Positions 8,647-11,600 of a DNA stretch of 14,504 bases are shown here, piece by piece. Each line of letters starts with the position of its first letter. Positions within the stretch are counted from its first letter, which is position 1. A program made the position numbers. The stretch is from a virus (lineage: Duplodnaviria; Heunggongvirae; Uroviricota; Caudoviricetes), in the IMG/VR virus record IMGVR_UViG_2529292834_000008, positions 1 to 14,504 of that record; one strand, written 5' to 3'.

Positions 8647-11600
8647 ACCCGCTCCAGCATTTGAAATAAGCCTTATTGTATTGCAGCACTGGCGTATTTT
8701 TTATTACGTGGGAGCAGGTTGTTTTAAGAGACATTCTGTTCTCTGGCTATGATTTGAGGCCAGGTTAGCCTCAGTGCTGATTTTTTTTACGACAGCAGAA
8801 TGGTGCATTATCGGTGGAGATTTTGTATTTCCTGGCAGGGTCGGTAATGCATCATTCTGATGTTGTAAGCATCGCTCAGAATAACGTTGAGATTAATCGC
8901 GTACTAAGCAAAACTTGGAAATACATCCTTAACCGCCGCACCAGGCGGTTTTTTTTATTCATTTTTTTCATGGCTCGCTACGGCGGGCCTTTTTCATATC
9001 CTCGCCACACCCGGCGCATATCACATCAAATAACGCCGCGCAAAAGGCATCTGCGGGCGCCTTTGACGGGGTGTTTTTACGGGCCGCTGGTGGCCCTTTT
9101 TTATTTACAGGAGAAAAACGTATGTCTGAACCCTTATCTGGTTCCGGCACGGCTGCGGCGCTCGGTGGGGCGACGGTATTCGGGCTGTTTACCGGAACGG
9201 ATTTCGGGATTGTGTTTGGTGCGTTCGCCGGGGCGTTATTTGTGGCAACGATGCCGCAGGCGCTTTCAGTCTGGCGTGTGGTGGCGCATTTTTTGGTGTC
9301 GTTTATCGTCGGCGTGCTGGGGGCGCGCGTGCTGTCAGCCTGGATTGCATCAAAAACAGGGTATGACGGTACATCGGCAGATGCGCTGTGTGCGGTGCTG
9401 GTATCGGTGGTGTCGGTGAAGATTCTGTCGTTCATCCACCAGCAGGATATTGCATCGCTGGTGTCCGGTGTGTTCTCCCGTCTGCGGGGTGGAGGCGGTA
9501 ATGTTAAGTAACCTTCCCGGATTACTGAATGTGGTGTTAAGCACGGTTATCGTGCTGACGCTCTTTTTTTATCGTCGTGGTGATTCCAGACATAAACCGC
9601 TGATGTCGTGGCTGGCCTGGCTGCTGATGCTGCTGTATGCCTTTGCGCCACTTTGTTATCTGTGTGGTCGCTTTCCACCCGGTAACTGGCTGGTCGTCCT
9701 GATTAACCTGGTGTTCTGCGTGCTGGTGATACGAGCACGCGGGAACGTATCAAAAATCCTTTCATTACGGAGGTGAGTATGCCCGGTAAATTCAGATTCA
9801 GTCGTCGAAGTGAGAAAAATCTGGAGGGCGTCAAACCACAGCTGGTTGCTGTTGTTCGCCGTGCGCTGGAGCTGACGGAGGTTGACTTCGGTATTACGGA
9901 AGGCCTGCGCAGTAAGTATCGCCAGAAGCAGCTGGTCGCGGAAGGGAAAAGCCAGACCATGAACAGCCGCCACCTGACCGGTGATGCGGTGGATGTTGTG
10001 GCCTACATTGGTAGCCAGGTGTCATGGGACTGGCCTCTGTACGAGAAAATCGCGCAGGCATTTAAGCAGGCTGCCGCAGAGCTGGGAACTGCCATCGAAT
10101 GGGGCGGGGACTGGAAAACACTGAAAGACGGGCCTCACTTTCAGTTGAAGCGCTAATAACCAGGTGGTTTATGAGCCGAAAACACTGGACACACAGAATG
10201 CCGCGAACGGCGGCGAAATGGGCACTGGTAGCGATACTGGTGCCTTTTTTCCTGGTGGGATGCGTTAGCCTGGATAAGGTGCGCCAGCTTTTCGATACGG
10301 CCTCGCAGGTCTGCGAAATTGTCGAAAGTGCCAGGCAGTGTATGCAGAACTGATCGCCTGTAAGAGCAGAATATTGTTGAATCTAAATTTACTTTGAACA
10401 GTGGCCCGGATGGAAAGGGCATCTAAATAGGAGCAGAAAAATGTTAACTGTAAAAGTCATGTCTCAAAATGGTGGGGAAGAGCTCCATTGCGGGCGTAGC
10501 ATTGGCTATCATCCAGAGCAGCGGAGTATTGCCGTATCGGGAAAGGATGGGAAAGTCATTCTGAAAGATGGAGATATTGCTTATGTAATGAACCAAAACG
10601 CTCAAATAATATCTGTTTATCGGCCCAATAATAGTCAGAAAAACATTTGAATTTCGCAAGTCCAAAGTTCAGTGGTGATCGTTATCAACTAATTGAAATA
10701 ACAAGCTTATGTTTGTGTAATTGGTGATATAGCATGTTAATGCTGAATATCAGCGTCAACATGGAGTTATACAATGGTTTTTAAACACTATTACGTGAAC
10801 AAAAATGCTCAGAGCAATGGCGATCATGAGGTGCATGCTGAGGAATGTTCATATCTTCCTTCTGTAGCTAACCGCGATTACCTTGGTTACTATAGTGATT
10901 GTTCTTCGGCGGTAACAGAGGCAAAGGCCAAAGGATATTCCCGGGTGAATGGTTGCTATTGGTGTGCCAATAAGTGCCACACGTCTTAATCAATTGTCAA
11001 TAAACCATAAAGGCCGCTCTGCGGCCTTTTTCATGTTAAAAAAGATTGCGGCATTACAGCAGCCCTTCACACTGAGTGGCTGCGATAATGTGAGAAATAA
11101 AAAACCGGCAGGGGAAATCCATTGAAGATTTGCCGGTGGCAAAAAGATGGCCATGCTTTCAACCTTAGTCGCAGGGTTACGGAGTGCAACTACGAATGCT
11201 GCCGGTATATGGCTGAATGGCGTTTCAATGATGTACGTCATCTTATCTGTAAATGTTAATGATAAAAGCTCTCATTTGTGCGGGTCCTTCCGGTGGGGTG
11301 GCCTGCCACGGGGCGGGAGCGTCGCGGAAAAAGGCTAGTTTTTGAAATTTTATTCGTCATCACCATCACTGTAATTGATTGATATTACAGTGATTTTATT
11401 TTTATGGTGTCGATTCTGATTGTTTTTTGTTCATCACTAACACCGTTTGCCTAAAGTTGTTCGCAAGATGCATGTTTAAAACATTCTGGAGCGGGTATGG
11501 ATCGAGAGTTAAAAAATCTGACGCTGAATATCAGTCAACTGGCGGCATTGTCAGGTGTACATCGCCAGACTGCTGCGGCAAGGCTGCAAAATCTACCCGT

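Follow-up and report, generated by a model that had tools for sequence, protein, structure and literature searches.

Known Morons and Related Small Proteins

Extra genes carried by temperate phages have received particular attention since the concept of the "moron", which is said to have been defined by Hendrix and co-workers, with bor and lom of phage Lambda as examples. A moron equipped with its own promoter and terminator can be expressed from a repressed prophage, and lambdoid phages classically accommodate such cargo between Rz and cos. Three other systems are useful for comparison with the locus described here. Conjugative plasmids and lambdoid phages encode small zinc-finger proteins of the TraR/DksA type, with a presumed role in modulating the host; Ada carries a Cys4 zinc domain for methyl-phosphotriester repair and DNA binding, Cys38 being the methyl-accepting residue; and lac P1 is a class I CRP-dependent promoter.

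The window analyzed in this study, i.e., the whole stretch of 14,504 nt (positions 1 to 14,504 of the IMG/VR virus record IMGVR_UViG_2529292834_000008), comes from a lambda-like (lambdoid) prophage of E. coli in which two small genes, hereafter ORF69 and ORF71, are located after the lysis genes and before the DNA-packaging site (cos). An initial annotation had taken both genes for morons of the bor and lom type. We favor a different reading, to which we give a probability of roughly 0.6: the two genes would be unrelated accessory genes sharing the stretch from the lysis cassette to cos, a known site for cargo, ORF71 and its flanks (about 10675–11031) forming an autonomous moron cassette, ORF69 being an accessory gene of the late operon, and their adjacency being a hot-spot effect.

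A Mosaic Insert Upstream of cos

Both genes are carried by a low-GC mosaic insert (10381–11050, + strand), delimited by breaks in homology and by its base composition. Homology to phage phiP27 ends at 10379, homology to phi458 and cdtI begins at 11050, and the GC content is 0.36–0.41 across 10350–10950, compared with 0.54–0.57 in the flanking lysis and terminase genes. The segment was found in 45 of 5426 complete E. coli genomes and its flanks in 177. The location given by the initial annotation holds: the genes on the 5′ side encode holins, an M15 endolysin, and a small lipoprotein, and cos lies about 280 nt downstream of the insert, where phage records start or finish at 11306–11311, within a G/C-rich cos-like stretch (11283–11328), ahead of the terminase small subunit gene starting at 11497. 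An Rfam scan of 10200–11500 returned matches below threshold only, located at the terminator described below.

ORF69

ORF69 (10441–10650, + strand; 69 aa) is present as initially described, with a strong Shine–Dalgarno sequence, AGGAG (10429–10433, + strand), separated from the ATG by a 7-nt spacer as read from the sequence. It matches phrog_3909, a PHROG family without assigned function, over profile positions 1–64 of 64 (E = 3.2e-36), and its dN/dS of 0.08 indicates purifying selection; scans of Pfam, NCBIfam, and PADLOC were empty, even when each member of the alignment was scanned singly. Judging from its AF2 model (pLDDT 85, six strands), ORF69 is a soluble all-beta phage protein, a small beta-sandwich binding a host protein being one possibility.

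Homologues occur in 252 phage records, about 245 of which, judging by the matches listed, appear to belong to virulent T5-like or other large lytic phages. Relatives were also found in 183 viral contigs, typically directly after Rz/Rz1; ORF71 is missing from 44 of the best 80 viral ORF69 loci, and the gene follows Rz/Rz1 there. In some contigs, the homologue is embedded in a replication operon, and it also occurs in early modules. The promoter and terminator scan of the window found no promoter-like site or terminator beside ORF69. As many prophages devoid of ORF71 have the gene directly after Rz/Rz1, and as virulent T5-like phages commonly carry it, we do not retain it as a lysogenic-conversion gene; from its sequence and contexts, we consider that it is an ordinary phage accessory gene. 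It would presumably be transcribed from the late operon and most likely act during lytic development, since its family is encountered chiefly in virulent T5-like phages, as well as in replication or early modules.

ORF71 and Its Flanking Signals

ORF71 (10774–10989, + strand) encodes a Cys/His-rich protein of 71 aa with six Cys in all, in agreement with the Cys-rich ORF initially reported. A Shine–Dalgarno sequence, GGAG (10763–10766, + strand), is found 7 nt before its ATG, in a GGG/GGAG block conserved in the upstream alignment. It matches phrog_4298, likewise a PHROG family without assigned function, over positions 1–69 of 70 (E = 3.6e-32), and its dN/dS of about 0.1 indicates purifying selection. 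Conservation of the reading frames was a point on which the initial annotation could have failed; both frames are real, given their PHROG matches (E = 3e-36 and 4e-32), their many homologues, and dN/dS values of 0.08–0.11.

The sequences upstream of ORF71 and at its terminator were aligned for 29 distinct enterobacterial prophage loci. One has to keep in mind that these loci are all related, so that part of the conservation reported here reflects shared descent. The same order of elements is found across the 29 loci: a CRP/FNR-type site, a weak −35 region, TAnnAT, a stem-loop, the Shine–Dalgarno sequence, ORF71, and an intrinsic terminator.

The first element is a predicted CRP/FNR-type site, GTGATCGTTATCAA (GTGA-N6-TCAA; 10675–10688, + strand). 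The block AAGTGA-N6-TCAAA is nearly invariant in the 29 distinct loci, with variable flanks, and its spacing to the hairpin is fixed at 53–54 nt although the intervening sequence diverges. The site is a hybrid, its left half being CRP-like (GTGA) and its right half FNR-like (TCAA). The Salmonella copy reads TTGATCGTTATCAA, which we take to be the FNR consensus TTGAT-N4-ATCAA, and a similar site, TGTGA-N6-TCAAT, is present upstream of a 50%-identical plasmid copy of ORF71. Other readings of this upstream block, namely a sigma-54, Fur, or Zur site or a −35 element, were excluded on inspection of the alignment. Further downstream, we propose from its conservation that TAGCAT (10730–10735, + strand; family consensus TAnnAT) is the −10 element, associated with a poor −35 region; nearly all distinct loci have TAnnAT 6–7 nt before the conserved hairpin. 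The center of the CRP/FNR-type site is located about 60.5 nt upstream of the transcription start predicted in this way, the canonical distance being −61.5.

A short stem-loop (GCTGA-ATA-TCAGC; 10742–10754, + strand), located where the ORF71 mRNA is predicted to begin, is supported by covariation: 99.3% of the cells are paired, 12 cells are changed on both sides, and the apical pair occurs as C-G (16), A-U (9), U-A (2), or U-G (2). None of 500 shuffles matched the observed values, and slid controls gave far lower ones. At the other end of the cassette, the terminator scan listed an intrinsic terminator (11009–11031, + strand) consisting of a hairpin of 9 bp, 6 of which are G-C (11009–11029), followed by a T run. 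It is found at the same place in the 29 loci, where it is 99.5% paired and shows four pairs changed on both sides, a count reached by 0 of 500 shuffles. The strong terminator attributed to ORF71 by the initial annotation is, thus, upheld by compensatory changes.

The most serious alternative, although an unlikely one, is that ORF71 lacks a dedicated promoter and is expressed from the Q-dependent late transcript only, the upstream blocks being RNA processing or stability signals or else recombination linkers. In lambdoid prophages, the cassette is indeed always co-oriented with the late genes, the −35 region is poor, and the stem-loop might just as well serve in processing or stability within a longer transcript. 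However, an invariant, palindrome-like GTGA-N6-TCAA kept at a fixed distance from TAnnAT across non-conserved sequence fits a protein–DNA promoter and not an RNA element; a dedicated terminator right after ORF71 is hard to explain for a gene expressed by read-through only; and distant homologues are antisense to the surrounding lytic genes in other prophages. Such distant homologues are antisense to the surrounding early genes in Streptococcus and Staphylococcus phages, and the one of a Photobacterium prophage lies opposite the lysis genes; in two Streptococcus records with annotated repressor and integrase, the homologue has the same orientation as those genes.

In the autonomous cassette that we favor, host RNA polymerase would start near 10742 with the help of cAMP-CRP or FNR, bound about 61 bp before the start in class I geometry; the 5′ stem-loop would stabilize the mRNA, and transcription would stop at 11031. 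A promoter aided by CRP/FNR and a dedicated terminator would then allow expression of ORF71 in the lysogen, controlled by a global regulator of the host, and the cassette would be read through by the Q-modified late transcript in the lytic cycle.

Cassette Contexts and Adjacency to ORF69

The ORF71 cassette occurs in at least four different local contexts. It lies downstream of ORF69 in this window and in loci L014 and L021; it is found upstream of ORF69 in loci with the reverse order, the ORF71 terminator being then between both genes; and it occurs without ORF69 in L127, L158, and L161/L162. The two genes are adjacent in 36 of the best 80 ORF69 loci and in 62 of the 80 ORF71 loci, which exceeds a naive hot-spot prediction.

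A rival view is that of a functional two-gene module kept by selection, for instance an effector with a phage-encoded antagonist or a toxin/antitoxin-like pair. We give this possibility slightly less credit than expression from the late transcript only. The ORF71 terminator separates the genes in the reverse order and, in our window, ORF69 is upstream of the ORF71 control region and outside it, so that ORF69 and ORF71 do not form a fixed operon. Besides the 44 of the best 80 ORF69 loci that are devoid of ORF71, ORF71 cassettes without ORF69 exist; an ORF71 homologue is present in 16 phage records, not one of them T5-like, whereas ORF69 is carried by T5-like phages; and ORF71 is found alone in the genomes of at least 579 bacterial species belonging to many phyla. 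An obligate ORF69–ORF71 pair was downgraded on the basis of the terminator between the genes in the reverse order and of these 44 loci. In the hot-spot reading that we prefer, the cassette would insert either before or after a gene already residing in a narrow hot spot, which would produce adjacency in either order.

Regarding conservation and synteny, ORF71 behaves as the self-contained unit that had been proposed, carried by some lambdoid prophages and missing from close relatives, with boundaries at about 10380 and 11050. The two-moron architecture, thus, stands for ORF71, with its mosaic edges, low GC content, and conserved terminator and control region, but not for ORF69.

The Initially Proposed Promoter

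The initial annotation assigned to ORF71 a candidate sigma-70 promoter, TTGAAA-17-TGTAAT (10693–10721, + strand), within a scheme where both ORFs are lysogenic-conversion morons. The two hexamers are present (10693–10698 and 10716–10721) and match 10 of 12 positions with the ideal 17-nt spacing. However, this is a chance-level match: the window contains five sites that agree at 10 or more of the 12 positions, this one included, and shuffled sequences contain 4.6 ± 2.4. In TGTAAT, a G replaces the critical A at position 2 of the −10 hexamer, which is why the promoter scan did not list the site. It falls within the least conserved part of the intergenic region, and neither hexamer is kept in any diverged locus (Salmonella L014 and L021, as well as others, are devoid of them). 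Promoters turn over fast, and this phage could use one that is absent from its relatives; nevertheless, TTGAAA-17-TGTAAT is probably not the working promoter. As ORF69 is, moreover, mainly a virulent-phage gene, we consider the scheme as a whole improbable.

The ORF71 Protein Family

ORF71 has 801 homologues at 55–76% identity, and its very widespread, unnamed family, whose members are about 68 aa long, comprises 1890 clusters at 50% identity; phages and plasmids are among its carriers. From its AF2 model (pLDDT 93.5), the protein appears to be a compact beta3-alpha-beta mini-protein. Eight residues (H18, H21, C25, C43, C61, C64, C68, and H69, i.e., five Cys and three His) are each kept in 224–253 of 255 family members, and the same eight are invariant in 27 diverse members. 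Metal binding is, thus, plausible from the sequence; the eight residues most likely hold two metal ions, their grouping into two sites being a guess. Zinc is our default guess for the metal, with an iron-sulfur alternative also possible. ORF71 is probably a small metal-dependent binder or regulator benefiting the cell that carries it.

Pfam, NCBIfam, and PADLOC scans were empty for ORF71, including when each alignment member was scanned singly; a sequence profile search of the PDB returned only noise from the CxxC motifs of ferredoxin-like proteins, and no convincing fold relative was found among solved structures. A literature search by PHROG identifier, sequence motifs, and accession yielded no relevant paper, and the gene is unannotated in the RefSeq E. 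coli genomes that we inspected. Among the neighborhoods compared, no conserved partner gene was common across phyla. Bacteroidota homologues have a recurrent neighborhood with a TPR histidine kinase, a LuxR-type regulator, and other small proteins, which indicates no specific function. No signal peptide, hydrophobic N-terminus, lipobox, or membrane segment could be read in the sequences of ORF69 and ORF71, and neither has a Pfam match; the analogy with bor and lom does not hold at the protein level.

A bolder proposal is that ORF71 represents an undescribed mobile two-metal mini-protein domain without a solved relative, with about 60–70% identity across more than ten phyla, acting as a stand-alone effector on phages, plasmids, and chromosomal islands (in phage exclusion or stress protection, for instance) and connected to global regulators of the host, and that ORF69 is its phage-encoded antagonist. 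This would account for the presence of both genes in temperate phages and of ORF69 alone in virulent T5-like phages; we regard this as a long shot, on a par with the initial scheme. A distant kinship of ORF71 with the N-terminal zinc domain of Ada, along with DNA binding, is highly improbable, as profile–profile comparison with an N-Ada alignment gave a probability of 0.6%, Pfam PF02805 had no match even with each member scanned singly, Foldseek found nothing, and ORF71 His21 aligns with Ada Cys38.

Significance of the Cassette

The ORF71 cassette, whose terminator and stem-loop both show compensatory changes, is an unusually clean case of a moron validated by comparison between loci. Through its putative control region, a gene carried as prophage cargo would be tied to CRP or FNR, a global regulator of the host. 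The ORF71 family is large, strikingly conserved, and uncharacterized, and is not in Pfam or NCBIfam. A family so constrained and so mobile probably touches something universal in bacterial cells and is, therefore, a reasonable subject for structural and genetic work. At the level of the prophage, the outcome is modest: of the two genes supposed to act in conversion, one is a routine phage accessory gene, and we claim no role in virulence or fitness for either.

Comparison with Known Systems

Small phage inhibitors such as T4 Dmd (PDB 5hy3_B and 7chr_A among the structures compared) scored below the level of homology, with no sequence similarity. The N-terminal zinc domain of E. coli Ada (PDB 1eyf and 1u8b; PF02805) is the best, though weak, structural match to ORF71. 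It is a small alpha/beta zinc domain, and two ligand pairs are similarly spaced in ORF71; unlike Ada with its four Cys, however, ORF71 has eight conserved ligand-type residues, and there is no profile relationship (0.6%). ORF71 resembles TraR/DksA-type proteins by its size of about 70 aa, its putative Cys ligands, and its occurrence as phage and plasmid cargo across many bacteria. It differs from them in that no similarity of sequence or fold was found, ORF71 being predicted as mostly beta with one helix instead of a coiled coil with a C4 finger.

As for regulation, the predicted layout of the region upstream of ORF71 is similar to that of class I CRP promoters such as lac P1, with a palindromic GTGA-N6-TCA about 61 bp before the predicted start, a weak −35, and a recognizable −10; unlike lac P1, one of its half-sites is FNR-like (TCAA), and its predicted center is at −60.5.

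Compared with lambdoid morons, ORF69 does not fit the definition. The ORF71 product, a soluble Cys/His mini-protein, differs from bor and lom, which are envelope proteins, and its control region differs from that of lambdoid morons in that it looks activator-dependent, with a CRP/FNR-type site predicted at about −61. ORF71 is otherwise much like them: an extra gene present in some phages and missing in close relatives, of deviant base composition, placed between late-operon genes, with a putative promoter on one side and a dedicated terminator on the other.

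Two Reading Frames between the Lysis Genes and cos

ORF69 (69 aa, 10441-10650, + strand) and the Cys/His-rich ORF71 (71 aa, 10774-10989, + strand) are genes. Both lie exactly where the initial annotation had placed them; the Shine-Dalgarno sequence it had credited to ORF69 reads AGGAG, 7 nt 5' of the ATG, and ORF71 has GGAG at the same distance. Each protein has a full-length PHROG match (phrog_3909 for ORF69, phrog_4298 for ORF71), both families being annotated as of unknown function, while Pfam, NCBIfam, and PADLOC gave no match for either. Conservation of the reading frames was borne out: both are constrained, with a dN/dS of about 0.08-0.11 against diverged copies whose synonymous sites are near saturation. 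ORF71 is not annotated by RefSeq in E. coli E24377A and most of the complete genomes listed; in strain 504838, the CDS annotated at this place is a 58-aa ORF (10949-11125) overlapping ORF71 at its 3' end and crossing its terminator. This ORF is annotated in at least one RefSeq genome, and its annotation in place of ORF71 looks like a gene-calling error. GenBank and UniProt do list the ORF71 protein itself, as hypothetical (A0A0B1MVJ0_ECOLX).

The window represents an E. coli prophage of the lambdoid type, and the 801 bases around both ORFs are 99.9% identical to E24377A and other, mostly enterotoxigenic, strains. The E24377A annotation lists as neighbours antiterminator Q; genes for a Ser/Thr kinase, a PP2C phosphatase, and a DNA methyltransferase; tRNA genes; genes for two holins, the M15 endolysin, and a small hypothetical protein; and ORF69 and the gene for the small terminase subunit. 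The two genes occupy an insert between the lysis genes and cos, the position that had been proposed, with the endolysin and holins 5' and cos at about 11306-11311, where several phage records start or stop within a G/C-rich stretch. The mosaic edges of the insert are sharp (~10380 and ~11050), and its GC content falls to 0.36-0.41 vs. 0.54-0.57 on either side.

Other elements of this prophage deserve mention. Directly 3' of antiterminator Q (4336-5031), Ser/Thr protein kinase and PP2C phosphatase genes are found (5101-6680, placed as annotated in the near-identical E24377A prophage), which presumably resemble the case of the stk kinase of prophage 933W, a kinase that excludes other phages. A cluster of four tRNA genes (8347-8656) separates the DNA methyltransferase from the lysis genes: one has a CAT anticodon (Met or Ile2), two are Lys-TTT, and one is Gly-TCC. 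Since the E24377A annotation has Ile, Thr, and Gly at this position, the tRNA set varies between near-identical prophages. A 60-aa ORF 3' of the M15 endolysin (10171-10353) carries a lipoprotein signal whose lipobox is LVGC, and the E24377A annotation shows no separate Rz-like gene next to it; in the homologous locus L127, this lipoprotein gene is located 3' of the ORF71 cassette, not 5' of it. It may be an o-spanin or another cargo piece. Lastly, a long A/T-rich inverted repeat (11365-11394, ATCACTGTAATTGATTGATATTACAGTGAT) followed by a T run separates cos from the terminase small subunit gene and could act as a cosB-like or terminase-binding element or as a terminator.

Architecture of the ORF71 Cassette

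ORF71 relatives were found on 97 viral contigs of IMG/VR, and 29 distinct enterobacterial loci share one architecture. It begins with a nearly invariant AAGTGA-N6-TCAAA, a putative CRP/FNR-type site, which reads GTGATCGTTATCAA in the window (10675-10688) and TTGATCGTTATCAA in the Salmonella copy, the latter corresponding to the FNR consensus. Then come 53-54 nt, constant in length and variable in sequence, which end with a predicted -10 hexamer of the form TAnnAT (TAGCAT, 10730-10735) located 6-7 nt 5' of a stem-loop, GCTGN-loop-N'CAGC (10742-10754). This stem-loop shows 99.3% pairing, its apical pair being C-G, A-U, U-A, or U-G depending on the locus; its covariation was reached by none of 500 shuffles, and slid controls collapse. 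The Shine-Dalgarno sequence, ORF71, and a terminator follow in this order. The strong terminator initially described was recovered as a hairpin at 11009-11029, with 99.5% pairing and, across the 29 loci, four pairs in which both sides have changed.

The promoter originally proposed, TTGAAA-17-TGTAAT, is probably the wrong one. Its hexamers are present (10693-10698 and 10716-10721), but the match is at chance level (5 of that quality in the window vs. 4.6 +/- 2.4 in shuffles), TGTAAT has no A at position 2 of the -10 hexamer, and both hexamers sit, not conserved, in the variable stretch of the 29-locus architecture. With transcription starting at the stem-loop's first base, the CRP/FNR-type site would be centred at -60.5, which for this predicted start is a class I CRP-type promoter geometry. 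A plasmid copy of ORF71, 50% identical, has TGTGA-N6-TCAAT about 106 nt 5' of its start codon.

Relationship between ORF69 and ORF71

ORF69 homologues were detected by tblastn in 252 phage records; among those listed, nearly all appear to belong either to the T5-like phages (from Escherichia, Salmonella, and Klebsiella) or to large lytic phages of ~140 kb, where the gene lies amid tRNA genes and small early genes. Other contigs carry it within a replication operon. IMG/VR holds 183 contigs with ORF69 relatives; ORF71 is missing from 44 of the best 80 loci, in which ORF69 is typically directly 3' of Rz/Rz1, as it is in phage Fraca. From this distribution and placement, ORF69 is a common resident of the lysis-cassette end; it has no signals of its own and is not tied to lysogeny.

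Synteny across prophages held for the ORF71 architecture but not for the order and adjacency of the two genes. ORF69 precedes ORF71 in the window and in two Salmonella loci (L014 and L021); about 38 other viral loci have the reverse order, with ORF69 about 70 nt 3' of ORF71. Such repeated adjacency looked like that of a conserved pair, which we nevertheless consider improbable: in the reverse order, the ORF71 terminator falls between the two genes, most ORF69 loci do without ORF71, and ORF71 cassettes adjoin other genes too (L127, L158, L161/L162). The simplest reading is that an autonomous ORF71 cassette inserted next to a resident gene, on one side or the other, within a narrow hot spot.

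In the reverse-order loci L135-L183, a strong hairpin of variable sequence lies about 0-40 nt 3' of the ORF69 homologue, with GATAATG or GATGATG on its 3' side and pairing CATTAC/GATAATG arms flanking an inner stem. It is not a typical terminator, since it has no T run; the same element is found in L158 (2881-2910), directly 5' of the CRP/FNR-type site of a solo ORF71 cassette.

The ORF71 Protein Family and Its Genomic Contexts

A word-indexed search returned 801 ORF71 homologues of about 68 aa, their identity typically being 60-75% and their sources including Bacteroidota, Acidobacteriota, and Vibrionaceae; profile searching across 1.84 billion representative proteins gave 1890 clusters at 50% identity, nearly all single-domain. 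Scanning one genome per species, we found relatives in at least 579 species, from phyla including Bacteroidota, Pseudomonadota, Acidobacteriota, Actinomycetota, Chlamydiota, Planctomycetota, Gemmatimonadota, Fusobacteriota, Myxococcota, and Patescibacteria. Invariant in 27 diverse members are YYVNKNxQxNGDHEVH, C25, P29, N33, L37, G38, C43, A46, N59, G60, C61, C64, C68, H69, and T70. Each of eight Cys/His positions is kept in 224-253 of 255 members, and the AlphaFold model, which is confident (pLDDT 93.5), has three strands followed by a helix and one more strand; two predicted metal sites are a reasonable inference from these eight residues, which may alternatively hold an iron-sulfur cluster. 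Kinship with the Ada N-domain was rejected because hhalign gave a probability of only 0.6% against a profile of 25 N-Ada sequences.

In bacterial chromosomes, ORF71 stands solo, and no partner gene common across phyla was found; frequent neighbours are transposases, mobilisation genes, restriction or Abi systems, and prophage genes. It is also found on 18 plasmids from a variety of taxa, one of them a ColE1-like plasmid of Citrobacter (6.6 kb). In Bacteroidota, ORF71 recurs 3' of a TPR histidine kinase and a LuxR-type regulator, amid other small proteins. Locus L050 (1469-7350) and 14-15 similar loci from Flavobacterium, Chryseobacterium, Pedobacter, and relatives surround the homologue with small DUF4236-like, TerB-like, and YegP-like proteins and two larger unknown ones, a neighbourhood that could represent a regulated island of small stress-type proteins.

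The homologue carried by Streptococcus and Staphylococcus phages is located in the early region, on the strand opposite to that of its neighbours; the two Streptococcus records, which have repressor and integrase annotated, show it oriented as these genes, and a Photobacterium prophage has it directed against the lysis genes. Such positions are those expected of a gene predicted to be expressed in the lysogen.

Both ORFs had been taken for morons, ORF71 as a self-contained promoter-gene-terminator unit. That reading fails for ORF69, which has no signals of its own and is not tied to lysogeny, and is right in kind for ORF71; the ORF71 cassette is a well-documented case of a known type of element, carrying a widespread protein family that merits experimental attention.
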